A program made the translations under genes and the position numbers. From NCBI RefSeq assembly GCF_004010195.1, contig NW_025214356.1, positions 5,323-38,924 on the forward strand: a stretch of DNA of 33,602 nucleotides, given 5' to 3'. How positions within the stretch are numbered: the first letter of the stretch is position 1; each line of letters opens with the position of its first letter. Below are positions 1-32,549 of the stretch, piece by piece. The stretch comes from Chiloscyllium plagiosum. Lineage: Eukaryota. The notes under the pieces were generated by a model, which worked only from the letters and a program-made list of their open reading frames with translations, ran no database searches and was not told the DNA's origin.

Positions 1-354
1 GTTTGATTGCGATGGGATTTAGACATTGACAGTCTCGACATGAGAAGCTCCATTAACAAATCCAAAGCAGCCTTTATGCAAATAAATGGCAGGACAGACT
101 GACCGGGCTGAGTGGCTTAATCTGCGACTTCCCTGTCTCCACTCCCAGAGTGATCTCTGCGATTTGCACTGACCTGCAAAAAATGCCTTCTTCACAATTT
201 CCTGTCAGTAGTAATGGGCTGCGACAGCACCAAGGCAACAAGAATCAGTATCAGAGATATCTACATCATCGGGCTCGCTGCTCCCAGCTACACTCGGCAG
301 GCTGGCACAATACTGTTATTTATATGGACTCGGAGAGTCTGCTGTCGTTAGTCG

Positions 355-2097
355 TCACACATGTATGTACGAATATGCACACAACCACGCACACACAGAA
401 ACACACCGAGACACTGACACACACACAACACAGACACACACACAAAACCTCCCCCACACACGCCCAAACAGACACCCACACCCACCCGCACAACCCAGCC
501 CCACACATACACATGCATGCACACACACATCCACGCATACACACCAACTTACACACACTCCAATACACACACCTGCACACAAGCACATCCATAAAGTATA
601 TCCACAAATGCACCTGTACCCACCCACTCACACGCAAGCACTTCCACATATATACACACATGCACATACACGCAGACACACCCACATCCACGCATATACA
701 CACATATACATACGCATGCACATGCATACCCACACATGCACACCTACACTCACATACATCGACATGTGTGCATACCAAACACAGACGCACACACATGCAC
801 ACATAAGTACACACACCGATACATCCACTCACAACCACACACCCAGATCCACTCACTCAAATATGCACAAACTCACAGATACACACATAAATACAGACAA
901 CCACAACCACACACCCATAACCACACACCCACAACCACACACCCACATCCACAAACACACATGCACATGCACTCACCCATTCACCCACCCAACCATGCAC
1001 GCATGCACAGACCAAAAGCACACACGTCAACACACACCAGAGGACAGCCACGCAGATAGACACAGACATGCAGACTCACGCGCAAATGCACAAATATCCA
1101 CACAAACAGATGTGCACATGCACAGATCCTCACACACACGCACACTAAACCACCTATCCAGCCGCGCACACATGCACATATTCACCTACTCACACATATA
1201 CACACACACGTTGAAACATCAACATGCACTTCCTTACACAAACGCACTCGCACCATGCATACACATGTGCAAACACACATATCCACGCATAGACGCACAC
1301 CGACGCCGACCCCCACACATACAAACACACAAACACAGACAGCCACATGCACATCCTCATACAACCAAATGCAACCGGATGTGTACACATACACTCACAC
1401 ATACACGCATAAACAACTATGGAAAACAATCACAACCATCAACACACGCAATCGTTCACAACTACACACCCACATGCACACACTCAAAACAAATACACAC
1501 ATACTCACCTACCCACACATCCACGCATGTAGCCACCCACAGCCACAGACAGGCACGTACACAATCAAAACCACATGCAATGCACTCACACAGACAAACG
1601 CCCACACGTAAGCATAGACACACCAGAACACACACACCCGCACACACTCACGCATATGCATAAACACACCAACCACACACCCACACACTTATGCACACAC
1701 TCACACTTATGCGCACAAACCCACACCAACGCACACATAGGAAGTCTCTCCCATACAGCAACACACACAGCCATAAGCACACACATACAAACGCACACAC
1801 CACACAAACATCCACATCAACATGCATGCACAGGCACAGACACATAGGCACACACACCCACACACACAGCGATACAAACACCCACACACCTTCACATGCC
1901 GACACCCGCACACCCACACACTCACGCATGCACATGCACAAACACAGCGACACAAACACCTACACACACCCACAACCAGGAGCACCTCCCACACCCACAC
2001 ACTCACGCATGCACATGCACACATCTCACACCAACACTCATATCCTCACACACCCACATGCCCCCACACCCATGCACACACCCACACCCACGCGCAT
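355..2097. repeat. Long degenerate (CA)n/CAYA low-complexity tract
   Basis: About 1.75 kb of interrupted CACA/CATA/CGCA, which produces the spurious His/Thr and Cys/Val ORFs. Confidence 0.95.
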
Positions 2098-2099
2098 CA

Positions 2100-3280
2100 A
2101 TAGTGTACTATCATTTTGATTAATTGCAGCCTGTGAGTCAGAAAGTTGGGCATCCAGTTGGAGTGTGTGGAACTGAGACGTAGATCATAGTGTTTTGCGA
2201 TCAGTCTGGAGGACATTATGGTGATGAAGGGGGAGTTGCAGTCGATGAGCAGGAATCTGACGTAGGTGACCTTGTTGCCTATATGTTCCAGGGGTGAGTG
2301 CAGGGCTAGGGATATGGCATCCGTTCTGTAACTGTTATGTCAGTTGGCAAATTGTCGTGGATCCAGACAGGTGGAGAGACTGGAGTTGATGTGGGTTATG
2401 ACACACTTCAGGATTATTCAAGTCAGCGGCACTGAGCGGAAATCATGAAGGCACATTGCTTTCTCAGTTACTGGGATGATAGTGATCTTCTTGAAGCAGT
2501 TGGGGATTTCAGCTTCTACGAAGAGAGTTTGAAGATGTCAATGATTAGCTCTGCAAATTGGTCCACACAGGATCTGAGTGCTTGTCTGGGAACACCACTA
2601 ATACTTTCCATCGTTTGCCTCTCAGGAAGAACGATCTAACATCTGAAATGGTGATGGAGAGTACAAATGTGCCCGGAGCTGTTGGCCCGGCTCCACAAAA
2701 CACCTAGCATTCTTCTCAAACTGAGCTTAGAAATCATTGTGCACGTCCAAGAGGTACGTGCCCTTGTCTGTTATCTTGCTTTGTTTCATATCCTACCCTG
2801 TAATGCAGCTTAGGCCTTAACACAGGCGGTGGTAGTGTGGTTGGTTGTTGTGGTCCTCTAATGTGATCTGGCACCGAATGATAGCAACCCTGATGGCTTT
2901 GAAGAGGATATATACGTCGTTCCATGTCTTCCGACCTGAATGCTGGTCTTCAGTAGGAAGTGGATTTCCTGGTTCATCGAAGGTTTCCAGTTGGAGAACA
3001 ACATGATTGACATTTTAGCTGCACAGTCCTCCACACATTTGCTAATGAATCCAAGCTTTTGCTACGGACTAATCCAGGTTTTCCACCAATTGCTTGAATA
3101 CAATCCAGTCCACCGATTCCAAGAACTCCAGGAGATGGTTCTCTACTGCTTCAGACCAGCATCGTATCACTTTTTGTGAAGGGCCCTACTTCAACAAAAA
3201 GGTTTCAGCTTCTGCTTGTGAGCTGGGAGGAGGAATACAGCGGTGTGATCTGACTTTCCGAAGTTTGGACAGGGTATAAT
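2100..3280 (-). mobile_element. Decayed Rex1/Babar-type LINE fragment (end of endonuclease, linker, N-terminal RT)
   Basis: Minus-strand translation across frameshifts gives FGKSDHTAVFLLPAHKQKL, RCWSEAVENHLLEFLESVDW, ALRSCVDQFAELIIDIF, IPNCFKKITIIPV, LDPRQFA, DAISLALHSPLEH and TYVRFLLID, which match Rex1-clade ORF motifs. Stops and frameshifts are present. Confidence 0.85.
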
Positions 3281-3299
3281 GAAGTACATTGACTCTACA

Positions 3300-3645
3300 T
3301 GGAACTCCAAACGCACAGCACCGTGGTTGCCATTGACTCCCTCCGTCTATAAGTGTGACCCCAGCTCCACACCAGTCTGGCTACCATTAACCTGCTGTGG
3401 GGTCTGTATGCAAATCCGGACCAAAAGCACTGTTCTTCCCAACGACCTGCTCTATTTATACATGTGACTCCCTGCTCGTAACACTATGTTTCACCTCAAC
3501 CAGGTCTATCTTGCACGAGATTCCAGAACCATAGCACTGAGGGTACCACTCACATGCTCTGTCCCTAGGTGTGACTCCAGATTCACTTCGCAAATTTTTG
3601 GTTTGACTTGTTCTGACTGTGCATGTGACCACAGAACCACTTCGG
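3300..3645 (+). repeat. Highly degenerate 54-bp minisatellite (~6.5 units)
   Basis: TGTGACTCC-like unit starts at 3300, 3354, 3409, 3463, 3516, 3570 and 3624 (324 bp = 6 x 54). Confidence 0.75.
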
Positions 3646-3649
3646 TCAG

Positions 3650-3740
3650 TTCTGACAAGGGTAATTCGACCTGAAAAGTTGGCAATGCCTTCTCTCCACA
3701 GTTGCTGCCTGATCCATTGAGCGTGGCCAGCAGATTCTGT
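3650..3740 (+). mobile_element. Decayed Penelope-like tail relic with broken hammerhead-like motif
   Basis: CTGACAA-GGGT-AATTCG-ACCT-GAAA followed by TCTCTCCACAGTTGCTGCCTGATCC..CCAGCA resembles the HHR+GATGCTGCCTGACCTGCTG tail seen at 17736-17811. Confidence 0.5.
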
Positions 3741-4414
3741 GATGATGATTTATTGAGTTTGGGGAAAGTGGCCTTAGAGTCTGAGTGACCAAATATTGGC
3801 AATGTGTTATGTGCCCGGATTATTTGAGGGACCAAGCCTAGCAGCCTCTCCTGTTTTTAACAGAAAATTTCATTCTGTGCGTTTTACCACGAAATGGTGC
3901 ATTCACCTCCTCGAAACACACAAACCTGCTAGATATTTTCCTTAATGTTTGAACAATGCGGACAGGAATTTGTGTGATTGATGGTCGTCTGGTGTTCGGT
4001 ACGCAAGCAGATAGAATTTTGTTTCCTACTCTATCCCAGTGCAGAAACCAATTTCATTTCGAATCTTTGAACTCAGATATGAGGCAGTGGAGATTCTCAG
4101 ACAATTGTCAAAACCGACTGCTGAATTGAGAAACATGCCCTTTCCACCCCCAAGTTAAAGGTATAAAATAAAGGCGTGAATTTGGTTGTTGGCTGTGGTT
4201 TGTGTATGTTCGAGCACAGAATAACATAATCAGGAAGTCGAGGGGAGACTTTTCAGCCCATTGAGTCCTCTACCAAGAAATACTATTCTAAATATTCACC
4301 AGTCCCACATACTAAAACATGGCTGTAGACTTGAAAGTGAATCATCCGATGGCGTTTTAAAGATTGTGAGATGTCGTTCCTCACCTGCCCTTCCATACAA
4401 ACAGTTGAAAATCC

Positions 4415-4720
4415 TTTGCTTGAATGTTCATCCAGAAACCCAGATGATGTTCTGGGAACCTGGGTTTGAATCCCGCCCTGACAGATAGTGGAATTTGAAA
4501 TCAAATATTAAAAGGAATATGGAATTTTGACGCTGATGATAAGAATGAGTCGGAAAACACAAGTGGTTCACCAATGTCCTTTAGGGAAGGAAAGTGTTAT
4601 CCATCCGTAGTCTATATCTGGCACCAGATCCATAGAAATGATGTTGACATCTAAGTGGTGTTTAGGTGGGCAATAAATGCTGCCTAACCAGAGACGCTGT
4701 CATCTGTAAATAAAATAAAA
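4415..4720 (+). mobile_element. Decayed tRNA-derived SINE (family uncertain)
   Basis: B-box-like GGGTTTGAATCCC at ~4462, central TGGTTCACCAATGTCCTTTAGGGAAGGAAA block, GGGCAATAAATGCTG tail and A-rich end. Confidence 0.7.
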
Positions 4721-5729
4721 TCATCAGCTACGTTTCAAATACAATTTGTGTCTCTTTGTCATTAACTCTCGAGTGTGGTGTGCAGCTGTTTTTTTTCTTC
4801 ACTGTCTCCATGCCCCTCATGACCTCATACACCTCAAACAGGCCTTCTCAGTAGCTTCTCTGCTGCAATCAAAAGAAGCTGGCCATATCCAGTGTCTCTT
4901 CACACCTAAGTTGCTCAATAGTACACAGGAAATCACATTAAATGAACTGATTCTTCTTATTCAAACATAATGCTTCACTGCATTAACTTCTGAGGAAAAT
5001 ACATGCAAAGCGCTGTACAAGTAGAGAGAATAAAAAAAGAAAGAAATGCTCATTGATATCAGCAGTGTGGCAAGTAGGACTTGCCCCTGTGCTCTCACCG
5101 ACCTACATAAGGCCAGAACAATGCAAATTGCTATCTCCCCGTTCTAACCAGAATTTATTGGGAGTTACAACAGTACAGATGGCTCAAATTGTGTTCAACT
5201 TACTTTGTGTGGTGCTGTAGGTTTAGCCTAATGTTGACAGAACCAACTCAAATTCATACAGTGAGTATCAATGTGAAGGTTCAGAGGGACTGTGGCGTCC
5301 TCCAGTAGTTTGCCAACAGGGAGTGAGATGTATCAGAGGCTTTGGCAGGCTTAGAAGTATAGCCGAGAAGTGCACACAATACTTTGGCTGTGTTCTGAGC
5401 AACGTTTTGTACAGTTCCTGCAGTAGCTTTCTCAGCGACATAACGAGTATTTCAGATCGTTTGTTAAGAGCTGAAGGACAGTGTGAGACCAGGACAGCGC
5501 TTGAGAAGCTGAGGAAGAGGTCTGAAAAACTTTGTTGTTTCTATTAGACCCCTGGTTTTGGTACAGCATGTGAATGGTTGAGGGATGGACCACACTTCTG
5601 ACCACAACTATGTACTCTCAGCCGACTTGCCAATCTTGCAAACTGGAAGGTTATCAAATCTGAACCCAGGTAGGAGCGGCAGTTTATAAAGTGTAGATTG
5701 AGCCACACTCATTGCACTTTAAAAGTGTA

Positions 5730-6050
5730 AGAGGCGACATTATTGAAATATCCAAGATTTTTAAGGAGCGTGGAAAGGTAGATGCAGAAAGGCAGTTTCC
5801 CCAGTGGTAAAGCCTGGAACCGGGGGCATCATCGCAGAATTCTGGGTCACCCATTGAGTTGGAATTTCTTGTCTCAGAGATAGTGAATCTTCTGAATTCT
5901 TTACCGCAGAGAAATGTGGAGGTTGGTTCGGTCAGTATATTTAAGGCTGTGATAAAGTAAGTTTAATCACGATGGGGAATCGAGAATTATGGGGAAAAGG
6001 CAGGAAATTTGAGTCAGGATGATGCGAACAGTCACGATCTTTTGGATTGC
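5730..6050 (+). mobile_element. CR1 LINE 3' end fragment
   Basis: RGDIIEISKIFK-like ORF2 C-terminus, then a TTCTTGTCTCAGAGATAGTGAATCTTCTGAATTCTTTACC block typical of CR1 3' ends. Confidence 0.7.
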
Positions 6051-6084
6051 CAATGCAGTCTCGATGAGCATTCAATGGTGTGAA

Positions 6085-6240
6085 ATCCTCTTTGGGGTTG
6101 TGAGACCAAACGACACACAATACTCCAAGTACGTTCTCGCCAACGCCCTGTATAACTTCAGTGAGTCATTCCGATTTCTGAACTGCATTCCCTTTGCAAT
6201 GAATGCCGCCATATCATTTGCCTTCCACATGGCTTGCAGT
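6085..6240 (-). mobile_element. Short CR1 ORF2 fragment
   Basis: Minus-strand reading LKLYRALARTYLEYCV resembles the CR1 motif LYKALVRPHLEYCVQFW. Confidence 0.6.
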
Positions 6241-6929
6241 AACGCAGGAAGTCAGTAAATATTTGATTCCAAGCACCTTGAGAAAGAGGGTCAGACAGGA
6301 TCATGACTGGTTCCGTTTCAGAGGACATTTCGAACAAAATGACATGCGCACAACAAAAATGTTTAATAATTGTATCATGGAGCAGGCCAGGCACCCCATC
6401 AAAATATTTCAAGGAAATAGAGGAGACCCTTTCTTGGCTAATTGTTTGAAGCAGGTGCAGAGAGGATATTCGAGCTGGTCCCACCACTTAGTTTGAAACC
6501 AAACAGAATTAATTTGCAAGAATATCGAATGAACTATAAAGAATAGCTACAGAGTATAGATTAATTTAACCGATCTGAAAACTGAACAAATCATCCCAAT
6601 TTAATCATGTTGCAAATTACTGCAACAATCTCCATAAACAAGGCCTTGGCACAAAATATGAAATCAAACACAGGTCCACGGCGGAGAGAGAGCAGAGAGA
6701 TTCAGCATCGAACACGTTCTTCCATGGAGCTGTTTCTTTGACAAGAGCCTCAAAACTGACTGACTACATGCTCTGAACAGCCAGATTGCTCGAAATCAAA
6801 CCTAACCAATGACAAGATAACCGTGTTAAAGGAGCAATATCGTCGGACTTGGGAGACAGCTGGTGGTAATTTATCTTCACAGTCACCATATCCGAGACGA
6901 AGGGAGCGCTTGAGAAACTCGGATCAGCG

Positions 6930-7830
6930 CGGTATTAATGACTTGGAGCAAGGAAGTGAACATCCACTCGCCAAAATTGCAGACGACTTTACGATCGGTG
7001 GAATGGCAACTTGTGAGCAAGATCGAAACAGCTTATTGAAATATATTAATTGTTCAAGTCAGTGGGCACAAAATTGACTAATATTGTATAACATTGAAAG
7101 ACCTGAAGATATTTATTTTGGGAGGGGGGAAAAAACAGATTTTTTTTTACATGAAGGAAACTGCAACACAATGGGACTTGTGAGGAAATGTTACCAATAC
7201 AGAAAAAGCTGGCACAGAGATGCAAAAGGCATCCAGAAAGGCTAATGGAATGTTCATTCTTATTTCAAGATTTTCAAGTATCACATCAGGGAAGTCTGAC
7301 TGCAAATGATCAAGATGCTGGGGAGGCAACGTCTGGAATAGTATGCAAAGTTTTTGCTCCCTTATGGAAGGAAAGATGTAATTTCATTGGAGACAGATCA
7401 CAGAAGGATGCTTGCAGGTTTGAAGAGAATATCTCATATGGAAAACCAAAGTCTGTTGCGAGCTATGGACTGAAGTTTACGATAATGAGAGGTGCTCTCA
7501 CGAGAAATATGCATGATTCTGAAGCGTGCTTAACAGGGAAAATGCTGATTTGAGGTTTACCAAGACCAGCGTGCCAGAGTCAATAAGCACCAATTTAGAG
7601 AGAGATGAGAGGGAATGTTGTTTCTCAGGATATTTGAAACTCCGTGTCACAGAGAGCAATGATAACCAAAATCCTTGTTTATATTTAAGACTGAGATAGG
7701 TAGAATCTTGATCCATCGGGGAATCACGGTTTACAGAGAAAGTCAAGATAGTGGATGAGAGGAATTTTGAGACAGAGTCGGTCCTGTTGAATAGCAGAGG
7801 AGGTTTGAGATGCAGAACCACCTATTCCTC
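6930..7830 (+). mobile_element. Decayed CR1 LINE 3' portion (RT catalytic region to 3' end)
   Basis: INDLEQGSEHPLAKIADDFTIGG (cf. INDL...KFADDTK), followed by LEYYAKF- and RGALTR-like remnants. Many stops. Confidence 0.7.
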
Positions 7831-8684
7831 ATCGTGTCTGACATTACTTTAATATTTTTCTCGTTCACTCCTTCCTAAATGATATTTTCACCGTTCAGAC
7901 AGTGAGAACTTTAATCTTTCAAGTCATACAATCCTTTACGAAAACATGACTAGAATGGGTTTGTGGGGAGGGGTGGGGGGGTTTGCAGGGCGGGGCTGGG
8001 GCTAGTTCGCTCGGGTCAAGGTGGGAATTCGGAAAGCAAACAGAAACCTGTTCACCACTCTCTAATTAAGACGGAGACGCAATGAAACCACTATATTGTA
8101 ATCAGACAGATTATTCAGTCATATTTGATCACTGAACACTTTTTAGTTGCTGGATTGTCTATGTCAAAACAATGTTTACTCTGTTGGATGGCTGATATTT
8201 GGGTACTGAGAAGTATGTATCATGTGTTCTGTCCACAGTCAAACAGCATCTGAAGTGATAAATACATAAGATGATTAACAATTGGACACTCGAAAATATG
8301 GACATTGTACAATGTCTACAGTAATACAGTATGTACAGTGTTGAAGAACTGAAATTTGGACATTCAGCAGCATGCATCATATGTATTATCTGCAATGATT
8401 GAATGTCTACAGCATGGGAGACTGTTAATTAAACATTCAGCTTTGTGTAGCCTGTATATGGAAAACAGGACAGCAGAATGAGATGCTGGATGTTTTACAA
8501 TCTTTACCGTGAGACAATGAAGCTTTTGTTGAGCTCTGGGAGACGGAAACTAACTTTTTGGCCGTTAAGCCTGTGTTAGAAGAACTCAATAATAGGCAGT
8601 CTGTTGAGGTGGTGACGTGAAAGTGTCCCTATCTTTAGTCCAGAGATCTGGGTTCTTTGAGCCATGGACTCCTACAGCACGGAG

Positions 8685-8889
8685 GAGAAAGTGAGGACTG
8701 CAGATGCTGGAGATCAGAGATGAAAAATGTGTTGCTGGAAAAGCGCTGCAGGTCAGGCTGCATCCAAGAAGCAGGAGAATCGATGTTTCAGACATAAGGC
8801 CTTCTTCAAGAATGAGCAGGGTGTGCCAAGCAGGCTAAGATAAATGGTAGGGAGGAGGGATTTGGGGGAGGGGCGTTGGGAATGCGATA
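8685..8889 (-). mobile_element. Partial Penelope-derived hammerhead monomer (end of tandem unit 1; ribozyme core mutated)
   Basis: Copy of 9645-9849. The minus-strand core reads TTGAAGA...GAAACATC instead of CTGAAGA...GAAACGTC. Confidence 0.8.
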
Positions 8890-9644
8890 TACGAAAACAT
8901 GACTAGAATGGGTTTGTGGGGAGGGGTGGGGGGGTTTGCAGGGCGGGGCTGGGGCTAGTTCGCTCGGGTCAAGGTGGGAATTCGGAAAGCAAACAGAAAC
9001 CTGTTCACCACTCTCTAATTAAGACGGAGACGCAATGAAACCACTATATTGTAATCAGACAGATTATTCAGTCATATTTGATCACTGAACACTTTTTAGT
9101 TGCTGGATTGTCTATGTCAAAACAATGTTTACTCTGTTGGATGGCTGATATTTGGGTACTGAGAAGTATGTATCATGTGTTCTGTCCACAGTCAAACAGC
9201 ATCTGAAGTGATAAATACATACAGTTCCAGATGATTAACAATTGGACACTCGAAAATATGGACATTGTACAATGTCGACAGTAATACAGTATGGACAGTA
9301 TTGAAGAACTGAAATTTGGACATTCAGCAGCATGCATCATATGTATTATCTGCAATGATTCAATGTCTACAGCATGGGAGACTGATAATTAAACATTCAG
9401 CTTTGTGTAGTCTGTATATGGAAAACAGGACAGCAGAATGAGATGCCGGATGTTTTACAATCTTTACCGTGAGACAATGAAGCTTTTGTTGCGCTCTGGG
9501 AGACGGAAACTAACTTTTTGGCCGTTAAGTCTGTGTTAGAAGAACTCAGTAATAGGCAGTCTGTTGAGGTGGTGACGTGTAAGTGTCCCTATCTTTAGCC
9601 CAGAGATCTGGGTTCTTTGAGCCATGGACTCCTACAGCACGGAG

Positions 9645-10173
9645 GAGAAAGTGAGGACTGCAGATGCTGGAGATCAGAGATGAAAAATGTGTTGCTGGAA
9701 AAGCGCTGCAGGTTAGGCTGCATCCAAGAAGCAGGAGAATCGACGTTTCGGACATAAGGCCTTCTTCAGGAATGAGTAGGGTGTGCCAAGCAGGCTAAGA
9801 TAAATGGTAGGGAGGAGGGATTTGGGGGAGGGGCTTTGGGAATGCGATAGGTGGAAGGAGGTTAAGGTGAGGGTGATAGGGCGGAGAGGGGGCGGAGGCG
9901 GAGACGTCGGGAAGAAGATTGCAGGTACCTGGGGGATGCAGTGAGAGAGGGACTCACTGAAATCCTTGTAGAGGGAGGAAGAGAGCTTCTTCAAGGAAGG
10001 CATCCTTGCAAGAGGATTCGCAGTAGTTTAAAATCAACTCGGAGAAAGTTAGAAACGTCGATTCTCCTGCTCCTTGGATGCTGCCTGACCTGCTGCGCTT
10101 TTCGAACAACACATTTTTCAGCTCTGATCTCCAGTATCTGCAGTTCTCACTTTCTCCTAGTTGATTTTAACCT
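9645..10173. mobile_element. Left-arm remnant of the Penelope-derived hammerhead cassette (full monomer on -, partial on +)
   Basis: Reverse complement of 17337-17860, truncated at 10173 by the left-arm deletion. Confidence 0.85.
9738..9774 (-). ncRNA. Minimal type I hammerhead ribozyme motif (core intact, one stem II mismatch)
   Basis: Minus strand reads CATTC-CTGAAGA-A-GGCC-TTAT-GTCC-GAAA-C-GTC-GATT. Confidence 0.6.
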
Positions 10174-10346
10174 GAAACATGAGGGGACATGAGAGTCTTT
10201 AGCAGGTCAGTTCAAGAAATCCCGTAATGCTTTGTATCGCTACGTCAGGGATAAACGAATGACAAGGTTTAGATTAGGGGCAGTCAAGGATAGTCCTGGG
10301 ACGTTGTGTGGGGAGTTCGAGGAAATATGAGAAGCATTGAATGAAT
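10174..10346 (+). mobile_element. CR1 ORF2 fragment, inverted copy of 14523-14695
   Basis: YRYVRDKRMTRFRLGAVKDSPGTLCGEFEEI-like CR1 linker; near-identical reverse complement of 14523-14695. Confidence 0.85.
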
Positions 10347-17047: not shown

Positions 17048-17084
17048 AATCGACATTTAGGGCATAAGCCCTTCTTCAGGAATG
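17048..17084 (-). ncRNA. Degenerate hammerhead motif (perfect stem II, GAAA mutated to TAAA)
   Basis: Minus strand reads CATTC-CTGAAGA-A-GGGC-TTAT-GCCC-TAAA-T-GTC-GATT. Confidence 0.45.
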
Positions 17085-17730
17085 AGGTGAGTATGCCAAA
17101 GCGGCTAAGATAAAAGATAGGGAAGAGGGACTTGGGGGAGGGGCATTGGGAATGCGATAGGTGGAAGGAGGTAAAGGTGAGAGTGATAGGCCGGAGAGGG
17201 ATGGGGGCGGAGGGGTCGGGAAGAAGATTTCTGGTAACTGGGGGGGCGTGCAGTGAGAGAGAGACTCATTGAAAGCCTTGTAGAGGGAGGACGAGAGCTT
17301 CTTCAAGGAAGGAATCCTTGCAAGAGGATACGCAATAGGTTAAAATCAACTGGGAGAAAGTGAGAACTGCAGATACTGGAGATCAGAGCTGAAAAATGTG
17401 TTGTTCGAAAAGCGCAGCAGGTCAGGCAGCATCCAAGGAGCAGGAGAATCGACGTTTCTAACTTTCTCCGAGGTAAACCTACTGCGAATCCTCTTGCAAG
17501 GATGCCTTCCTTGAAGAAGCTCTCTTCCTCTCTCTACAAGGATTTCAGTGAGTCCCTCTCTCACTGCACCCCCCAGGTACCTGCAATCTTCTTCCCGACC
17601 TCTCCACCTCCGCCCCTTCTCCGCCCTATCACCCTCACCTTGACCTCCTTCCACCTATCGCATTCTCAACACCCCTTCCCCAAATCCCTCCTCCCTACCA
17701 TTTATCTTAGCCTGCTTGGCACACCCTACT

Positions 17731-17767
17731 CATTCCTGAAGAAGGGCTTATGTCCGAAACGTCGATT
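17731..17767 (+). ncRNA. Minimal type I hammerhead ribozyme motif, catalytic core intact
   Basis: CATTC-CTGAAGA(17736-42)-A-GGGC-TTAT-GTCC-GAAA(17756-59)-C-GTC(17761-63)-GATT. Stem II is 4 bp with one G.U, stem III is palindromic ACGT, and stem I is weak. Confidence 0.7.
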
Positions 17768-18729
17768 GTCCTGCTTCTTGGATGCAGCCTGACCTGCAGC
17801 GCTTTTCCAGCAATACATTTTTCGTCTCTGATCTCCAGCATCTGCAGTCCTCACTTTCTCCTCCGTGCTGTGGGAGTCCATGGCTCAATGAACCCAGATG
17901 TCTGGACTAAAGATAGGGACACTTACACGTCACCACCTCAAAAGACTGCCTATTATTGAGTTCTTCTAACACAGACTTAACGGCCACAAAGTTCGTTTCA
18001 GTCTCCCAGAGCTCAACAAAAGTTTCATTGTCTCACGGTAAAGATTGTAAAACATCCGGCATCTCATTCTGCCGTCCTGTTTTCCATATACAGGCTACAC
18101 AAAGCTGAATGTTTAATTATGAGTCTCCCACGCTGTAGACATTGAATCATTGCAGATAATACATATGATGCATGCTGCTGAATGTCCAAATCTCAGTTCT
18201 TCAACACTGTATATACTGTATTACTGTAGACATTGTGCAATGTCCATATTTTCGAGTGTCCAATTGTTAATCATCTGGAACTGTATGTATTTATCACTTC
18301 AGATGCTGTTCGACTGTGGACAGAACACATGATACATACTTCTCAGTATCCAAATATCAGCCATCCAACAAAGTAAACATTGTTTTGACATAGACAATCC
18401 AGCAACTAAAAAGTGTTCAGTGATCAAATATGACTGAATAATCTGTCTGATTACAATATAGTGATTTCATTGCGTCTCCGTCTTAATTAGAGAGTGGTGA
18501 ACAGGTTTCTGTTTGCTTTCCGAATTCCCACCTTGACCCGAGCGAACTATCCCCAGCCCCGCCCTGCAATCCCCCCACCACCACCACCCCACCCCACAAC
18601 CCCATTCTAGTCATGTTTTCGTAAAGGATTGTATGACTTGAAAGATTAAAGTTCTCACTGTCTGAACGGTGAAAATATCATTTAGGAAGGAGTGAACGAG
18701 AAAAATATTAAAGTAATGTCAGACACGAT

Positions 18730-19631
18730 GAGGAGTAGGTGGTTCTGCCTCTCAAACCTGCTCTGCTATTCAACAGGACCGTCTCTGTCCCAAAATTCCT
18801 CTCATCCACTATCTTGACTTTCTCTGTAACCCGTGATTCCCCGTTGGATCAATATTCTACCTATCTCAGTCTTAAATATAAACAAGGATTCTGGTTATCA
18901 TTACTCTCTGTGACACGGAGTTTCAAATATCATGAGAGACGACATTCCCTCTCATCTCTCTCTAAATTGGTGCTTATTGACTCTGACAGGCTGGTCTTGG
19001 TAAACCTCCTATCAGCATTTTCCCTGTTAAGCACGCTTCAGAATCATGCATATTTCTCGTGAGAGCATCTCTCATTCTCGTAAACTTCAGTCCATAGTTC
19101 GCAACAGACTTTGGTTTTCCATATGAGATATTCTCTTCAAACCTGGAAGCATCCTTCCGTGATCTGTCTCCAATGAAATTACATCTTTCCTTCCATAAGG
19201 GAGCAAACACTTTGCATAATTTTCCAGACGTTGCCTCCCCAGCATCTTGATCAGGTGCAGTCAGACTTCCCTGATGTGATACTTGAAAATCTTGAAATAA
19301 GAATGAACATTCCATTAGCCTTTCTGGATGCCTTTTGCCCCTCTGTGCCAGCGTTTTCTGCTTTGGGAACATTTCCTCACAAGTCCCATGATGTTGCAGT
19401 TTCCATCATGTAAAAAAAAAACGGTTCTTTTTTCCCCCTCCCAAAATAAATATCTTCAGGTCTTTCAATGTTATACAATATTAGTCAATTTTCTGCCCAC
19501 TGACTTGAACAATTAATATATTTCAATAAGCTGTTTCGATCATGCTCACAAGTTGCCATTCCACCGATCGTAAAGTCGTCTACAATTTTGGCGAGTGGAT
19601 GTTCACTTCCTTGCTCCAAGTCATTAATACC
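18730..19631 (-). mobile_element. Decayed CR1 3' portion (mirror of 6930-7830)
   Basis: INDLEQGSEHPLAKIVDDFTIGG in ORF 19485..19739. Confidence 0.7.
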
Positions 19632-20509
19632 GCGCTGATCCGAGTTTCTCAAGCTCTCCCCTCGTCTAGGATATGGTAACTGTGAAGATAAATTACCACC
19701 AGCTGTCTCCCAAGTCCGACGATATTGCTCCTTTAACACGGTTATCTTGTCATTGGTTAGGTTTGATTTCGAGCAGTCTGGCTGTTCAGAGCATGTCGCC
19801 AGTCAGTTTTGTGGCTCTTGTCAAAGAAACAGCTCCATGGAAGAACGTGTTCGATGCTGAATCTCTCTGCTCTCTCTCCGCCGTGGACCTATGTTTGATT
19901 TCATATTTTGTGCCAAGGCCGTGTTTATGAAGATTGTTGCAGTAATTTGCAACATCATTAAATTGGGATGATTTGTTCAGTTTTCAGATCGGTGAAATTA
20001 ATCTATATTCTGTAGCTATTCTTTATAGTTCATTCGATAATCTTGCAAATTAATTCTGTTTGGTTTCAAACTAAGTGGTGGGGCCAGCTCGAATATCCTC
20101 TCTGCATCTGCTTCAAACAATTAGCCAAGAAAGGGTCTCCTCTATTTCCTTGAAATATTTTGATGGGGTGCCTGGCCTGCTCCATGATATAATTATTAAA
20201 CATTTTTGTTGTGCGCATGTTATTTTGTTCGAAATGTCCTCTGAAACGGAACCAGTCATGATCCTGTCTGACCTTCTTTCTCAAGTTGCTTGGAATCAAA
20301 AATTTAGTGACTTCCTGCGTTGCTGCAAGCCATGTGGAAGGCAAATGATATGGCGGCATTCATTGCAAATGCAATGCAGTTCAGAAATCGGAATGACTCA
20401 CTGAAGTTATACAGGGCGATGGCGAGAACGTACTTGGAGTATTGTGTGTCGTTTGGTCTCACAACCCCAAAGACGATTTCACGCCATTGAATGCTCATCG
20501 AGACTGCAC

Positions 20510-20823
20510 TCCAAAAGATCGTGACTGTTCGCATCATCCTTACTCACATTTCCTGCCTTTTCCTCATAACTCTCGATTCCCCATCCTGACGAAACTTTGT
20601 CACAGCCTTAAATATACTGACCGAACCAACCTCCACATTTCTCTGCGGTAAAGAATTCCGAAGATTCAACTAGCTCTGAGACAAGAAATTCAAACTCAAT
20701 GGGTGACCCAGAATTCTGCGATGATGCCCCCGGTTCTAGGCTTTACCACTGGGGAAACTGCCTTTCTGCATCTACCTTTACACGCTCCTTAAAATCTTGG
20801 ATATTTCAATAATGTCGCCTCTT
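20510..20823 (-). mobile_element. CR1 3' end fragment (mirror of 5730-6050)
   Basis: Reverse complement of the left-arm fragment. Confidence 0.65.
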
Positions 20824-22449
20824 ACACTTTTAAAGTGCAATGAGTGTGGCCCAATCTACACTTTATAAACTCCCGCTCCAACCTGGGTTCAGCCTTGATA
20901 ACCTTCCAGTTTGCAATATTGGCAAGTCGGCTGAGAGTACATAGTTGTGGTCAGAAGTGTGGTCCATCCCTCAGGCATTCAAATGCTGTTCCAAAACCAG
21001 GGGTCTAATAGAAACAACACAGTTTTGCAGACCTCTTCCTCAGCTTCTCAGAGCACTGTCCCAGTCTCACACTGTCCTTCAGCTCTTAACTAACGATCTG
21101 AAATACTCGTTACGTCGCTGAGAAAGCTACTGCAGGAACTGTACAAAACGATGCACAGAACACAGCCAACGTATTGTGTGCACTTCTAGGCTATATTTCT
21201 AAGCCTACCAAAGCCTCTGATACATCTCACCCTCTGTTGGCAAACTACTGGAGGACGCCACAGTCCCTCTCAACCTTCACATTGATACTCACTGTGTGAA
21301 TTTGAGTTGGTTCTGTCAACATTAGGCGAAACCTACAGCACCATACAGAGTAAGTTGAACACAATTTGAGCTACCTGTACTGTTGTGGCTCCCAATAAAT
21401 TCTGGTTAAAACGGGGAGATATCAATTTGCATTGTTCTGGCCTTATGTAGGTCATTGAGAGCACAGGGGAAAGTTCCTACTTGCCACACTGCAGATATCA
21501 ATGAGCATTTCTTTCTCTTTTCATTCTCTCTACTCGTACAACGCTTTGCATGTATTTTCCTCAGAAGTTAATGCAGTGAAGCATTATGTTTGAATAATGT
21601 TCCTAGGTACTTGCCTGTACTTCTAATTATGTTGTGTACATTTCTGACATCGAAGAAGAAAAGGCGACATGCAATGCTGCAAAGCATCAGCATTTCCGAC
21701 CGGGGAGATGCCTCATCTCAGCAATTCAGCTTCTATTCTATGGTGTCAATCCAATAAACTGAGAACCATCGTTTATTTTCAGTGATGTGATTAAAAACTG
21801 TGTGACACTGGCAAGCGACGAGTTTCCGTGTCTCATTTCCCATTCAGATTAGTCACTTAACAGAGTGTCTGGGAAGAAGGAGGAGATCAGAAAATGGGTA
21901 AGGCGCATTGATGGCATTTTCACTGGAGGAGTTTAATTTAGTGCAGGGGGGGGCTTTGCTGAGGCCGCAGCTGGAGAACCATGTGTAATTATGGCCTCTG
22001 TACTGTAGGAAGGATTTGGATGCCTTGAAGAACGTGCAAAAAAAGGTTTACCGTTTAGTGATTGGAAACAGGTGGATTGTATTGACGATGTGACCTTTAT
22101 TCGGGTTGATAACTTGGGGAAGTCAAAGATTCCTGAATGAAAGATGTAGAGAGGGCATCCAAAGTCTCCACAGTTGAGAGACCTCCTCCGAGATGTCTGG
22201 CCACAGTCAGTATACTGTGCCAATGCAAGTAAAGAGGGAATTGAGGTACAAGCCCCTATGCAGTTATTTTGACCAGAATGTTGCCTGTTTTACAGTATAC
22301 CACTTGTCAGGAGAGGTTTTCCCTTGATTGTTGAAGGCTGGGTGCAGTCTGGCTAAAAATACCTCGAATTATGTGAACCGTGAATAGGTTACCCAGCTGG
22401 AGAGCTCGCCCAGGCTTGTTATGTCAAATACTGGTGGGTATTATTTATG

Positions 22450-22640
22450 TTGTGAGGGCAAATCTGGAAAGGAAATGCGTGAGGAAAGGGTTTTGCACGC
22501 AGAGTGGTAGGCGTCTGGATCACATTACCAGAGGCGATACTGGAAACAAATATGATGGCAATATTTTGACATACATATGACCAAGCAGAGAACAACGAGA
22601 TGTAGTCCATGTGCAGGCAGATGCAATTAATTTGGCCCAC
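22450..22640 (+). mobile_element. Old CR1-like 3' end fragment within the right-arm-only segment
   Basis: GTGAGGAAAGGGTTTTGCACGCAGAGTGGTAGGCGTCTGGATCACATTACCAGAG resembles the CR1 terminal RxxFFTQRVVxxWNxLP block. Confidence 0.5.
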
Positions 22641-22888
22641 ACATGCAGGAAGAAGAATAAATTCATTTAATGTGATTTCCCGTGTACTATTGAGCAACTT
22701 AGGTGTGAAGAGACACTGGATATGGCCAGCTTCTTTTGATTGCAGCAGAGAAGCTACTGAGAAGGCCTGTTTGAGGTGTATGAGGTCATGAGGGGCATGG
22801 AGACAGTGAAGAAAAAAAAACAGCTGCACACCACACTCGAGAGTTAATGACAAAGAGACACAATTTGTATTTGAAACGTAGCTGATGA

Positions 22889-23195
22889 TTTTATGTTATT
22901 TACAGATGACAGCGTCTCTGGTTAGGCAGCATTTATTGCCCATCTAAACACCACTTAGATGTCAACATCATTTCTATGGATCTGGTGCCAGATATAGACT
23001 ACGGATGGATAACACTTTCCTTCCCTAAAGGACATTGGTGAACCACTTGTGTTTTCCGAATCATTCTTATCATCAGCGTAAAAATTCCATATTCCTTTTA
23101 ATATTTGATTTCAAATTCCACTATCTGCCAGGGCGGGATTCAAACCCAGGTTCCCAGAACATCATCTGGGTTTCTGGATGAACATTCAAGCAAAG
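22889..23195 (-). mobile_element. Decayed tRNA-derived SINE (mirror of 4415-4720)
   Basis: Reverse complement of the left-arm SINE. Confidence 0.7.
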
Positions 23196-23964
23196 GATTT
23201 TCAACTGTTTGTCTGGAAGGGCAGGTGAGGAACGACATCTCACAATCTTTAAAACGCCATTGGATGATTCACTTTCAAGTCTACAGCCACGTTTTGGTAT
23301 GTGGGACTGGTGAATATTTAGAATAGTATTTCTTGGTATAGGACTCGATGGGCTGAAAAGCCTCCCCTCGACTTCCTGATTATGTTATTCTGTGCTCGAA
23401 CATACACAAACCACAGCCAACAACCAACTTCACGCCTTTATTTTATACCTTTAACTTGGGGGTGGAAAGGGCATGTTTCTCCACTCAGCGGTCGGTTTTG
23501 ACAATTGTCTGAGAATATCCACTGCCTCACATCTGAGTTCAAAGATTCGAAATGAAATTGGTTTCTGCACTGGGATAGAGTAGGAAACAAAATTCTATCT
23601 GCTTGCGTACCAAACACCAAACGACCATCAATCACACAAATTCCTGTCCGCATTGTTCAAACATTAAGGGAAATATCTAGCAGGTTTGTGTGTTTCGAGG
23701 AGGTGAATGCACCATTTCGTGGTAAAACGCACAGAATGAAATGTTCTGTTAAAAACAGGAGAGGCTGCGAGGCATGGTCCCTGAAATAATCCGGGCACAC
23801 AACACATTGCCAATATTTGGTCACTCAGACTCTAAGGCCACGTTCCCCAAACTCAATAAATCATCATCACAGAAACTGCTGGCCCCGCTCAATGGATCAG
23901 GCAGCAACTGTGGAGAGAAGGCATTGCCAACTTTTCAGGTCGAATTACCCTTGTCAGAACTGAC

Positions 23965-24308
23965 CGAAGTGGTTCTGTGGTCACATGCACAGTCAGAACA
24001 AGTCAAACCAAAAATTTGCGAAGTGAATCTGGAGTCACACCTAGGGACAGAGCATGTGAGTGGTACCCTCAGTGCTATGGTTCTGGAATCTCGTGCAAGA
24101 TAGACCTGGTTGAGGTGAAACATAGTGTTACGAGCAGGGAGTCACATGTATACATAGAGCAGGTCGGTGGTAAGCACAGTGCTTTTGGTCAGGATTTGCA
24201 TACAGACCCCACAGTAGGTTAATGATAGCCAAACTGGTGTGGACTGGGGTCACACGTATAGACGGAGGGAGTCAATGGCAACCACGGTGCTGTGCGTTTG
24301 GAGTTCCA
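23965..24308 (-). repeat. Degenerate 54-bp minisatellite (mirror of 3300-3645)
   Basis: GTCACA/GAGTCACA motifs at ~54-bp spacing. Confidence 0.7.
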
Positions 24309-24329
24309 TGTAGAGTCAATGTACTTCAT

Positions 24330-24996
24330 TATACCCTGTCCAAACTTCGGAAAGTCAGATCACACCGCTGTATTCCTCCTCCCAGCTCACAAGCAGAAGC
24401 TGAAACCTTTTTCTTTGAAGTAGGACCCTTCACAAAAAGTGATACGATGCTGGTCAGAAGCAGTAGAGAACCATCTCCTGGAGTTCTTGGAATCGGTGGA
24501 CTGGATTGTATTCAAGCAATTATTGGAAAACCTGGATCAGTACGTAGCACCATCTTGGATTCATGAGCAAATGTGTGGAGGACTGTGCAGCAAAAATGTA
24601 AATCAGGTTGTTCTCCAACTGGAAACCTTCGACGAACCAGGAAATCCACTTCCTACTGAAGATCAGCATTCAGGTCGGAAGACATGGAACGACGTATATG
24701 TCTTCTTCAAAGCCATCAGGGTTGCTATCATTCGGTGCCAGATCACATTAGAGGACCACAACAACCAACCACACTACCACCGCCTGTGTTAAGGCCTAAA
24801 CTGCATTACAGGGTAGGATATGAAACACAGCAAGATAACAGACAAGGGCACGTACCTCTTGGACGTGCATAATGATTTCTAAGCTCAGTTTGAGAAGAAT
24901 GCTAGGTGTTTTGTGGAGCCGGGCCAACAGCTCCGGGCACATTTGTACTCTCCATCACCATTTCAGATGTTAGATCGTTCTTCCTGAGAGGCAAAC
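24330..24996 (+). mobile_element. Rex1/Babar LINE fragment (mirror copy; resumes briefly at 25526-25610 after a foreign insert)
   Basis: ORF 24439 reads IRCWSEAVENHLLEFLESVDWIVFKQLLENLDQY..KAIRVAI..; upstream FGKSDHTAVFLLP. Confidence 0.85.
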
Positions 24997-25304
24997 TCGA
25001 AATGGCGGTGACTCTCGGTTCATTACGATCGTGCTCCAGCGAATGGTCGTGAATTCACGTGATCAGGTCATTGGATTTTCAGAAATTCCGATTCAGGCAA
25101 GTGTGAAAACGCTCACGGAGATGTCCTCTGGAATTTGAAGCGGCGTACCCTTCCACTCAGGCTATTGTTTCGGCCTGCTGTGTCTGATTCAAACAGAAAC
25201 TTCCCGTGACTGTCGCCAGTGGGCAATCGTTGTGGGCAAGACTTCCAGATCAAGATTTACTTCCAATGTCGCTGTTTTCATTGTTTAAACGAAATCATTT
25301 CACT

Positions 25305-25376
25305 TGCCTGTTCAGGGAATTGAATCTGAGATTACCACCTTACAGATCGGGTTGCTAACCACTATAAGAACGAGAA
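25305..25376 (-). pseudogene. Decayed tRNA-Asp(GTC)-like sequence
   Basis: Minus strand TTCTCGTTCTTATAGTGGTTAGCAACCCGATCTGTAAGGTGGTAATCTCAGATTCAATTCCCTGA aligns without gaps to vertebrate tRNA-Asp (TCCTCGTTAGTATAGTGGT.AGTATCCCCGCCTGTCACGCGGGAGACCGGGGTTCGATTCCCCGA, recalled) at about two-thirds identity. Stems are broken and the anticodon position reads GTA. Confidence 0.65.
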
Positions 25377-25612
25377 ACATTCTTTTCAATCCTGGCGTTT
25401 AGGTCACATATCGAATCGCCTACTTGGAAATGAAGGTGTGGTCAGTCCCTTCAGGAATGTGACATGACCTGTAGGACTGAGGGGCTGCGGATACACTTCA
25501 GTTCTCTCGGAATGAGTCTGGAAGGCTACGTCTCAGTTCCAAACACTCCAACTGGATGCCCAATTTTCTGACTCACAGTCTGCAATTAGTGAAAATGATA
25601 GTACACTATTGA

Positions 25613-27356
25613 TGCGCGTGGGTGTGGGTGTGTGCATGGGTGTGGGGGCATGTGGGTGTGTGAGGATGTGTGCGTTGGTGTGAGATGTGTGCATGTACAT
25701 GCGTGAGTGTGTGGGTGTGTGAGGTGCTCGTGGTTGTGGGTGTGTGAAGGTATTTGTGTCGTTGTGTTTGTGCATGTGCATGCGTGAGTGTGTGGGTGTG
25801 CGTGTGCGGGTGTCGGCATGTGAAGGTGTATGGGTGTGGGTGTGGGTGTTTGTATCGGTGTGTGTGTGGGTGTATGTGCCTATGTGTCTGTGCCTGTGCA
25901 TGCATGTTGATGTGGATGTTAGTGTGGTGTGTGCGTTTGTATGCGTGTGCTTATGGCTGTGTGTGTTGCTGTATGGGAGAGACTGCCTGTGTGTGCGTTG
26001 GTGTGGGTTTGTGCGCATAAGTGTGAGTGTGTGCATAAGTGTGTGGGTGTGTGGGTAGGTGTGTTTATGCATATGCGAGAGTGTGTGCCGGTGTGTGTGT
26101 TCTGGTGTGTCTATGCTTACGTGTGGGCGTTTGTATGTGGGAGTGCATTGCATGTGGTTTTGAGTGTGTACGTGCCTGTCTGTGGCTGTGGGTGGCTGCA
26201 TGCGTGGATGTGCGGGTGGGTGAGTATGTGTGTATATGTTTTGCGAGTGTGCATGTGGGTGTGTAGTTGTGAACGATTGCGGGTGTTGATGGTTGTGATT
26301 GTTTTGTATGGTTGTTTATGCGTGGATGTGTGGGTGTATGTGTACACATCCTGTTGCATTTGGTTGTATGAGGATGTGCATGTGGCTGTCTGTGTTCGTG
26401 TGTTTGTCTGTGTGGGGGTTGGCGTCGGTGTGCGTCTATGCGTGGATATGTGTGTTTGCACACGTGTATGCATGGTGCGAGTGCGTTTGTGTAGGGAAGT
26501 GCATGTCGGATGTGTGCACGTGTGTGTATATGTGTGAGTAGGTGAATATGTGCATGTGTGCGTGGCTGGATAGGTGGTTTAGTGTGCGTGTGTGTGAGGA
26601 TCTGTGCATGTGCACATCTGTTTGTGTGGTGAGGATCTGTGCATGTGCACATCTGTTTGTGTGGGTATTTGTGCATTTGCGCGTGAGTGTGCATGTCTGT
26701 GTCCTCTGGTGTGTGTTGGGGTGTGTGCTTTTGGTCTGTGCGTGCGTGCATGGTTGGGTGGGTGAATGGGTGAGTGCATGTGCATGTGTGTTTGTGGAGG
26801 TGGGTGTGTGGTTGTGGGTGTGTGGTTGTGGGTGTCTGTATTTGTGAGTGCATCTGTGAGTTTGTGCATATTTGAGTGAATGGATCTGGGTGTGTGGTTG
26901 TGTATGTATCAGTGTGTGTACTTATGTGTGCATGTGTGTGCGTCTGTGTTTGGTATGCACGCATGTCGATGTATGTGAGTGTAGGTGTGGATGTGTGGGT
27001 ATGCATGTGCATGCGTGTATATGTGTGTGTGTGTGCGTGGATGTGGGTGTGTCTGCGTGTATGTGCATGTGTGTTTATATGTGGAAGTGCTTGCGTGTGA
27101 GTGGGTGGGTATAGGTGCATTTGTGGATATACCTTATGGATGTGCTGTGTGTGGGTGTGTGTATTGGAGTGTGTGTAAGTTGGTGTGTATGCGTGGATGT
27201 GTGTGTGCATGCATGTGTGGGGCTGGGTTGTGCGGGTGTCTGTTTGGGAGTGTGTGGGGGAGGTTCTGTGTGTGTGTCTGTGTTGTGTGTGTGTCAGTGT
27301 CTCGGTGTGTTTCTGTGTGTGCGTGGTTGTGTGCATATCCGTACATACATGTGTGA
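25613..27356. repeat. Long degenerate (TG)n low-complexity tract (mirror of 355-2097)
   Basis: Reverse complement of the left tract with slippage indels. Confidence 0.95.
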
Positions 27357-27788
27357 TGAATAATGACAGCAGGCTCTCCGAGTCCATAAAAAAACAACAG
27401 TATTGTGCCAGCCTGCCGAGTGCAGCTGGGAGCAGCGAGCCCGATGATGTAGATATCTCTGATACTGATTCGTGTTGCCTTGGTGCTGTGGCAGCCCATT
27501 ACTACTGACAGGAAATTGTGAAGAAGGGATTTTTGGCAGATCAGTACAAATCGCAGAGATCACTCTGGGTGTGGAGACAGGGAAGTCGCAGATTAGGCCA
27601 TTCAGCCCGGTCAGTCTGTCCTGCCATTTATTTGCATAAAGGCTGCTTTGGATTTGTTAATGGAGCTTCTCGTGTCGAGACTGTCAATGTCTAAATCCCA
27701 TCGCAATCAAACCCTTCTGAGCTTTCCTTTCCTGGGTCACTTTGTATTCGGTAATTGTAAGCGGGATTTAAAGAGAGGGAGGGAATAG

Positions 27789-32518: not shown

Positions 32519-32549
32519 ATGTACTTTCTTGTTTGAGGGTCTTTGTCTG

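Follow-up and report, generated by a model that had tools for sequence, protein, structure and literature searches.

An inverted repeat around a 500-N gap in the Chiloscyllium plagiosum assembly, probably formed by Hi-C scaffolding of paralogous copies

The window analysed here is a stretch of 33,602 nucleotides from Chiloscyllium plagiosum (NCBI RefSeq assembly GCF_004010195.1, contig NW_025214356.1, positions 5,323 to 38,924 of the forward strand). As assembled, it holds two long, similar sequences in opposite orientation, and it raises the question of whether these are the arms of a genuine palindrome. An initial annotation had described a giant, aged palindrome, in which 1-10346 mirrors 14523-27712 at roughly 95-97% identity. 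Our blastn and global alignments bear out this inverted match between a left copy (L) and a right copy (R), with 342 substitutions over 8,894 aligned columns (3.85%). Blastn bit scores reach 6,224, and by this measure chance cannot account for the match. Once the left tandem duplicate and a swapped piece (both described below) are left out, the shared sequence comes to about 8.9 kb, short of the arms of at least 10 kb that had been proposed. The two copies and their aligned blocks are as follows:

1-10346, minus strand: L copy of the duplicated unit, a single gap-free contig cut at both ends, by the window start and by the 500-N gap
14523-27712, plus strand: R copy, portion shared with L (blastn and global alignments)
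1-2183/27712-25526: inverted block, 4.1-6.0% substitutions over three sub-blocks
2613-4958/24996-22650: inverted block, 2.7% substitutions
4957-7936/21597-18624: inverted block, 4.3% substitutions
8890-9849/18623-17656: inverted block, 4.0% substitutions
9850-10173/17655-17337: inverted block, 3.1% substitutions
10174-10346/14695-14523: inverted block, 4.6% substitutions
25609-27372, plus strand: decayed simple-sequence tract rich in TG/CA, with its mirror image at 341-2100

In the first of these blocks, BLAST identity is only 91.6% because of gaps within the CA-rich tract. The duplicated unit crosses several element boundaries, is not a single transposable element, and has a low copy number. 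Across it, bin depth in three public runs switches between 40-300 and 10^4-10^6, and we therefore regard it as low-copy DNA with high-copy repeats embedded in it. The elements in the window presumably belong to the CR1, Rex1/Babar, Penelope-like and HE1 SINE families. Segmental duplications are usually defined as longer than 1 kb, and the L/R pair falls among them at more than 1 kb and more than 90% identity. It resembles the low-copy segmental duplications of vertebrates in being a multi-kilobase, repeat-rich unit with more than 90% identity, several copies, copy-specific indels and patchy identity, and differs from them in that no gene was found in the part of the shark unit examined.

Protein and RNA gene searches agree with the earlier observation that no gene is visible in the arms or spacer. 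Rfam gave no match at gathering score and seven weak matches at E up to 5, none near its own family cut-off, and ARAGORN found no tRNA gene; a stretch at about 25300-25380 that looked tRNA-like by eye matched no tRNA when searched locally against Rfam. The Pfam cut-off was reached by none of 84 frames, selected from frames of at least 60 residues in the right copy, spacer and flank plus one left frame, in a search by frames that short exons would escape. Five of the 84 gave weak Pfam matches (E 0.019-0.049), including RVT_1 at 15847-16134. Three candidate exons were rejected: frame 20075-20401 had no match in PDB or the protein collection, frame 20069-20359 had none in PDB or Atlas, and 10850-11405 overlaps a high-copy repeat, with a bin depth of 16,000-41,000 and loose ends at 11087. 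For the LINE frame at 24424-24789 a longer homologue was not found, and frame 15488-15814 matched two proteins, nameless or uninformatively named. RNA run X21, read to about 2%, left 12 of 30 bins without depth; 95% of its matching reads diverge onward from the stretch, and it says nothing firm about a gene. No function of the duplicated unit is detectable with the methods applied.

Four large arm-specific rearrangements separate L from R, in keeping with the several large indels noted initially: two R-only segments, one swap and one left tandem duplication.

14696-17336, plus strand: R-only segment of 2,641 bp, absent from L
21598-22649, plus strand: R-only segment of 1,052 bp, a deletion in L with 2-base microhomology at the junctions
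24997-25525, plus strand: 529-bp foreign piece in R, which took the place of 429 bp of LINE
2184-2612, minus strand: ancestral LINE reverse-transcriptase piece, in L only (translation)
7937-9849, plus strand: tandem duplication in L, with halves 7937-8889 and 8890-9849

The first segment is a deletion in L, because in R a LINE frame passes through 14695 unbroken and the repeat cut at 17336 likewise carries on; near-identical low-depth contigs from public DNA runs X1 and X3 cover 15814-17012. The second is carried unbroken by contigs spanning 21423-22713 (X1) and 21423-23030 (X3). In global alignments, left 2184-2612 and right 24997-25525 form a non-homologous swap. We assign the replacement to R because the LINE frame runs unbroken across 2184 and 2613 in L and because an X1 contig of 1,638 bp departs from R exactly at 24996. 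The LINE piece at 2184-2612 we take to be Rex1/Babar-like. From its sequence, the tandem duplication in L could have arisen falsely where two contigs were joined and the join closed. With arms that have diverged and carry copy-specific changes, the pair is, as first proposed, no identical fold-back chimera, and represents transposon debris that was duplicated long ago.

The two copies meet at a gap:

10347-10846, unstranded: 500-N gap, which a Hi-C scaffolder likely introduced as a join of nominal length

The initial annotation had cautioned that the left contig is joined across this gap, and the caution was apt. The contigs flanking it measure 10.3 and 22.8 kb, and the remaining gaps in the window are 266 N and 761 N. 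Passages of PMC9292758 give 500 N as the spacer that the Hi-C scaffolders 3D-DNA and SALSA2 insert by default, and passages there and in PMC6719893 describe Hi-C orientation as dependable only for long sequences. A fixed-size scaffolder gap between short pieces, a criterion for misjoins, is what we find at 10347-10846. We infer from its size alone that a Hi-C join produced the gap, whose length is probably nominal. Homology between L and R extends to base 1 and to base 10346, the last base before the gap, and therefore neither arm end is a homology breakpoint. On translation, the LINE frame cut at the L end (10346) carries on in R past 14523; the gap interrupts a LINE, and L is cut off mid-element. 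Among the 15 of 1,670 joints listed, all on the right side, no read or contig spans or contradicts the gap.

Contigs from the public DNA runs add a third sequence type, represented by high-depth contigs, of which the long ones listed differ from R by 2.0-4.8%. This type carries 21598-22649, which L lacks, and at 23197 another 24 bases that neither L nor R has. Relative to contigs 99.4-99.8% identical to R, its depth is 3.41-fold in X1 (7 contigs vs 1) and 3.34-fold in X3 (5 vs 2), ratios that rest on the 8 and 7 contigs listed for these runs, among 24 of 324,543 pieces listed. Listed contigs over the right side measure at most 1.6 kb, and none of the 8 listed for run X7 is near-identical to R. 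Depth is no direct copy number, and the baseline for a single copy is inferred; read in this way, the roughly 3.4-fold depth of the third type over R-like contigs points to a family of likely about four copies per genome, neither two arms nor two alleles. If the low depth were haploid, the total would be two loci, a number that a palindrome could supply.

These depths bear on whether L and R represent a single locus, as two haplotypes or as X and Y forms, placed falsely side by side as a heterotype false duplication. Passages of 10.1101/2020.05.22.110833 describe heterotype false duplicates as often adjacent with a gap, and an inverted join would be expected for haplotypes for the same reason as for the paralogues discussed below. 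Against this, depth stands at about 3.4:1 in two samples and not at 1:1, there are three sequence types, and at 3.8% the divergence is some 19-fold the mean diversity of 0.002 that a passage of PMC10587355 reports for the epaulette shark. The L/R pair thus shows none of the marks of heterotype false duplication (half depth for each, two types only, allelic divergence), and the haplotype alternative, also raised initially, is highly improbable. Three types and a 3.4:1 depth favour paralogues over alleles, to the extent that the assumed baseline depth holds.

The third type also informs the sequence between the gap and the R copy:

10847-14522, plus strand: apparent spacer, a continuation of the duplicated unit assembled on R only

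X1 contigs lie in the spacer at 12164-12617 (depth 46.5) and 14240-14653 (depth 51, bridging 14523), and X1 contigs in the arms have depths of 41.5-51.8; the means are 48.8 for the spacer (2 contigs) vs 46.9 for the arms (5 contigs). The spacer is covered by the same kind of high-depth contigs, diverged by 2-3%, as the arms, and is therefore a continuation of the duplicated unit. Its equal depth counts against a unique loop, whose expected depth is half that of the arms.

We favour, with a probability of about 0.62, a reading in which L and R are old copies of a family of transposon debris, with about four copies per genome, whose head-to-head layout was produced by a Hi-C scaffolder joining them over a nominal gap. 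The locus is best read as an ordinary low-copy segmental duplication, probably turned palindromic by scaffolding. Elsewhere in the family, the bases that end the left contig continue without a break into spacer sequence, of which the assembly has a copy only where the right scaffold begins. Pairs of reads derived from these other copies would therefore connect the tail of the left piece with the head of the right one, and a join of these two ends is an inverted repeat by construction. In a toy Hi-C model, which is unnormalised and supposes the other copies to be missing from the assembly, the inverted join was top-scoring in 9 of 9 settings with hidden copies. When the true layout was direct and one to three copies were hidden, the observed join came out on top in 11 of 12 settings; without hidden copies, the correct direct one did so in 3 of 4. 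A Hi-C bias toward inverted joining of homologous pieces, as this model predicts, is proposed here and was not met in the passages on Hi-C scaffolding in the papers cited.

The locus shares with published false duplications and Hi-C misjoins, as passages of 10.1101/2020.05.22.110833, PMC6719893 and PMC9292758 describe them, that similar sequences abut across a fixed-size gap and that the input pieces are short and not reliably oriented by Hi-C. It differs from them in that the shark pieces are likely real paralogues and not haplotypes, so that only their adjacency and orientation are doubtful. When a large and diverged inverted repeat has a 500-N gap at its centre and its match reaches the gap, it is what Hi-C scaffolding of two homologous pieces is expected to yield, and such repeats should not be read as palindromes without spanning reads.

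The assembled sequence does have the shape of a tight palindrome that arose in one fold-back or breakage-fusion event, with arms of at least 10 kb flanking a unique spacer no longer than about 4 kb, and that is now decaying; its arms have diverged and so do not represent a library chimera. We nevertheless consider this origin very unlikely. The inner end has neither a homology breakpoint nor a fold-back junction, the spacer stands at arm-level depth, a third sequence type is present, and 96% identity falls below the 99% that defines converted palindromes in passages of PMC8327919. The short-spacer palindrome of the initial annotation is not borne out, since both ends of its left arm are cuts, its spacer has the arms' high-depth relatives and its gap length is probably nominal. 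The fold-back, breakage-fusion or amplicon origins suggested for it are likewise disfavoured by a spacer that belongs to the repeated unit, a deeper third type, a gap of Hi-C default size, and a join orientation that the toy model predicts.

Ampliconic palindromes are defined in passages of PMC8327919 by arms of at least 8 kb and an identity of at least 99%. Like those described there for the mammalian X and Y, the shark arms exceed 8 kb (8,894 aligned columns) and are inverted as assembled; unlike them, they are 96% rather than at least 99% identical, with kilobase indels between them. The shark pair also lacks a unique spacer bounded by homology breakpoints, its inner end being a contig end inside a LINE. 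Ampliconic palindromes usually, though not necessarily, carry a protein-coding gene within the arms (21 of 26 on the human X); none was found in the shark arms by the frame search above, which short exons would escape. No paper on shark palindromes or inverted duplications appeared by title among the 12 of 220 literature matches listed, and the string "palindrom" is absent from the main text of a preprint on shark sex chromosomes.

One part of the alignment sets L and R apart from the third type:

22650-24996, plus strand: lower-divergence block (2.7% between L and R), containing a 24-bp gap at 23197

L and R differ at 63 of 2,345 columns in this block vs 177 of 4,248 (4.2%) in neighbouring blocks (Fisher p=0.002), and relative to the high-depth contigs the 24-bp gap is common to both. 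Together, the shared gap and lower divergence hint, at the sequence level, at a closer tie between L and R alone. Both would fit past conversion between copies that are truly adjacent and in opposite orientation within a cluster of segmental duplicates. The distance between them would then probably exceed the assembled one, since inside the gap L likely runs on into a spacer copy of its own. True closeness can also lie behind a Hi-C join, and duplicates frequently occur in clusters. However, the toy model predicts the same join without adjacency. Outside 22650-24996, moreover, L bears the letter of the high-depth type and not that of R at all 11 listed sites and matches this type at 4 of 6 clear indels, although the sites listed are the best-supported 40 of 937, a selection that favours such a resemblance. 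We hold adjacency in a cluster to be somewhat unlikely.

More broadly, a real inverted pair is possible, though clearly the lesser prospect. Its more specific form is doubtful: a real, gene-free inverted repeat with arms of 9-13 kb, forming one pair in a four-copy family, which would have lasted some ten million generations without collapse or homogenisation and would keep one ancient conversion trace at 22650-24996. If true, it would be a dated relic of a decaying palindrome in a vertebrate that mutates slowly. Were the assembled layout correct, the locus would offer a rare, dated and unconverted large inverted repeat in a shark, from which rates of decay and conversion could be measured. Biologically, the L/R pair is probably nothing unusual: transposon debris duplicated to a low copy number. 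The duplicated unit decays neutrally, perhaps with an occasional exchange between copies. That the arms are not being homogenised at present, as first suggested, agrees with the tandem duplication in L, whose halves have drifted apart at 18 of 953 columns (1.9%) and each still differ from R by 4.0%.

We compared the window with itself and aligned the matching blocks globally. Five long inverted matches tile 1-10346 (L, the left copy) against 27712-14523 (R, the right copy), a correspondence far above chance, whose coordinates and identities agree with the initial annotation. Over 8,894 aligned columns, which take in a single copy of a tandem duplicate in L, the copies differ by 342 substitutions, or 3.85% (3.95% after Jukes-Cantor correction; 2.7% in the lowest block and 6.0% in the highest). 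The annotation also rightly ruled out an identical fold-back chimera. The two substitution classes are nearly balanced, transitions barely exceeding transversions both between the arms and between the window and public runs. The divergence is about 19 times the mean diversity of 0.002 reported for the epaulette shark, and at that species' pedigree mutation rate of 7e-10 per generation (PMC10587355) it would correspond to a crude and probably too old age of ~2.8e7 generations. Overall, the duplication that L and R represent is real and old, low in copy number and made up of transposon debris.

Three large differences are specific to one copy:

14696-17336, present in R only: deletion in L; the LINE frame in R runs on across 14695
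21598-22649, present in R only: deletion in L; unbroken in contigs of two public runs
24997-25525, in R: replacement in R; the LINE frame of L is continuous across both junctions

The third is assigned to R because of the continuous frame in L and because a 1,638-bp contig from one public DNA-type set (X1) departs from R at exactly 24996. The 529-bp replacement piece is CpG-rich (observed/expected 0.90, against ~0.5 around it), has relatives in public runs with up to nine contigs per site, and may have its origin in a small family of repeats or in a region of regulatory type. L also carries a tandem duplication of 953 bp. Its two halves differ from one another at 18 of 953 columns, and each is 4.0% from R; if the duplication is real, it would imply no homogenisation between L and R at that place since its origin. 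These separate deletions, replacement and duplication indicate that L and R each decayed independently. Divergence is lower in 22650-24996 than in the neighbouring blocks (63 of 2,345 versus 177 of 4,248 columns, p=0.002), and this stretch contains a 24-bp gap common to both copies. Both features fit an old exchange between L and R, and so perhaps closeness. We consider a real inverted pair, at unspecified spacing, possible though unlikely.

Homology extends to window base 1 and to the final base ahead of a 500-N gap at 10347-10846, one of three gaps in the window (the others are 266 N and 761 N). The inner end of L falls within a decayed LINE reading frame that R carries unbroken through 14523. 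Since the arm ends are thus cuts inside homology, the sequence shows no duplication breakpoint and offers no fold-back junction for inspection.

Public runs allowed us to examine the supposed spacer, 10847-14522. Twenty-four runs were listed for 10850-20840, and the best of them contained half of the words in that stretch; contigs of four runs (three DNA-type sets and one RNA run) were aligned on 10847-25600 at 88% likeness. Sets X1 and X3 come from one study and X7 from another, and X1 is perhaps the source sample, in which case it is not independent of the window. Run contigs are described as consensus paths in which minor variants are collapsed (10.1101/2024.07.30.605881), and hence show presence, not absence. 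In X1, two spacer contigs are 2.0-2.2% from R and on par in depth with the arm contigs of that set, which lie at 41.5-51.8: one covers 12164-12617 at depth 46.5, and the other, at depth 51, covers 14240-14653 and crosses 14523, where the arm was supposed to end. Similarly, summed depths are 62.8, 154.4 and 290.2 in the low-repeat spacer bin 12323-12814, versus 74.2, 141.2 and 152.2 in the arm bin 20687-21178. The spacer is not unique sequence, since its depth matches the arms, whereas half that depth would be expected of a single-copy loop flanked by two arms. The initial annotation had proposed a giant aged palindrome with arms of at least 10 kb flanking a spacer of at most ~4 kb; with spacer depth equal to arm depth it is left without a unique spacer, and we regard this tight palindrome as highly improbable.

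High-depth run contigs are 2.0-4.8% from R. Among the best-supported 40 of 937 sites, a selection that favours sites changed in R alone, they carry L's letter at all 11 that L covers. Of nine listed indels, four side with L, two (20426, and 24 bases at 23197) set these contigs apart from both copies, and three lie in one-letter runs and are ambiguous. Because they share letters with L, have their own indels and contain 1,052 bp missing in L, these contigs are neither L nor R but a third type. At 15814-17012, by comparison, X1 and X3 contigs are 99.4-99.8% identical to R (3/573, 1/530 and 3/539 letters differ; each P <1e-4 were true divergence 3%), at depths of 13.9 in X1 and 27.1-30.5 in X3. 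Excluding one X3 contig 9.7% from R, taken as another transposon copy, the high-depth type exceeds these near-R contigs 3.41-fold in X1 and 3.34-fold in X3, or ~3.0-fold once words shared with R are allowed for. Residual depths with the window's letter are ~8-16 in X1 (one 31) and form two groups in X3, ~14 and 22-30, which suggests a diploid single-copy level of ~28 in X3. Together with the depth ratio, this level points to roughly three further copies beside R, although depth is no copy number; should the low depth be haploid, the total would be two loci.

Among the contigs listed for X7 none is near-identical to R; the two of low depth differ from it by 2.9% and 6.4%. The 2.9% contig lies at 16076-16490, a stretch over which X1 and X3 differ from the window by no more than 0.6%, and runs of X7's study contain 0.34-0.35 of the words versus 0.45-0.50. 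Either X7 samples a more distant population that bears the same label, or the contig is another copy. In the region 15380-15814, near-identical X1 and X3 contigs both depart from the window at 15814, each with 174 unaligned bases; the window's LINE frame seems short by about 174 bases there, beside a high-copy insertion, and R may carry a deletion polymorphic between individuals.

A gap of 500 N is the default in 3d-dna and SALSA2, and reliable Hi-C orientation is limited to long sequences (PMC9292758). SALSA2 weighs contig-half links, with inversions common among short contigs (PMC6719893), and collapsed and allelic contigs draw false links (10.1101/2023.11.18.567668). In other copies of the unit, the L tail would continue straight into the spacer sequence, assembled here at R's head only, and their read pairs would link L tail with R head. 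We built a toy Hi-C model on the real L-R alignment, unnormalised and with other copies assumed missing from the assembly. An inverted join came top in all nine settings (the join seen in six, the other inverted join in three). When the true layout was direct, at 1 kb-1 Mb, and one to three copies were hidden, the join seen won 11 of 12 settings; with none hidden, the correct direct join came top in three of four, the fourth giving near-equal counts at 1 Mb. The model predicts a palindrome shape even without a real palindrome, which does not make the join wrong. Among 15 of 1,670 joints listed, all but one within high-copy repeat, no contig spanned or broke the 500-N gap. The giant palindrome is unproven, and a scaffolding product is more likely.

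In its length, its identity and what it contains, the unit fits a segmental duplication. Compared with ampliconic palindromes of mammalian sex chromosomes, for which 8-kb arms and 99% identity are used (PMC8327919), its arms are long enough but its identity is too low, and a unique spacer is lacking. The unit also resembles heterotype false duplications, whose copies are placed next to each other with an intervening gap (10.1101/2020.05.22.110833), but depth and divergence here favour paralogues.

No tRNA turned up in the window and no Rfam family reached its cut-off, nor did any Pfam domain in the 84 frames scanned; searches with two exon-like frames gave no relatives, and a tRNA-like look near 25300-25380 had no Rfam support. 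Public-run depth is 40-300 in low-copy bins and 10^4-10^6 in repeat bins, as expected for low-copy DNA strewn with transposon copies, which we take from sequence style to be CR1, Rex1/Babar, Penelope-like and HE1 SINE elements. Short inverted and direct repeats (70-380 bp) at 16987-17861 and 8683-10173 come from copies, arranged head to head, of a single element of very high copy number (depth ~10^6). CpG observed/expected is 0.37-0.90 over 15 segments of the window, high for decayed vertebrate repeats. A degenerate 1.76-kb CA/TG tract at 341-2100 and 25609-27372 is strongly strand-skewed (GC skew up to 0.6) and still aligns between copies, with 4.4% substitutions and 13 small gaps. Outside the duplicated part, a decayed tandem repeat of ~33-bp period occupies 32099-32600.
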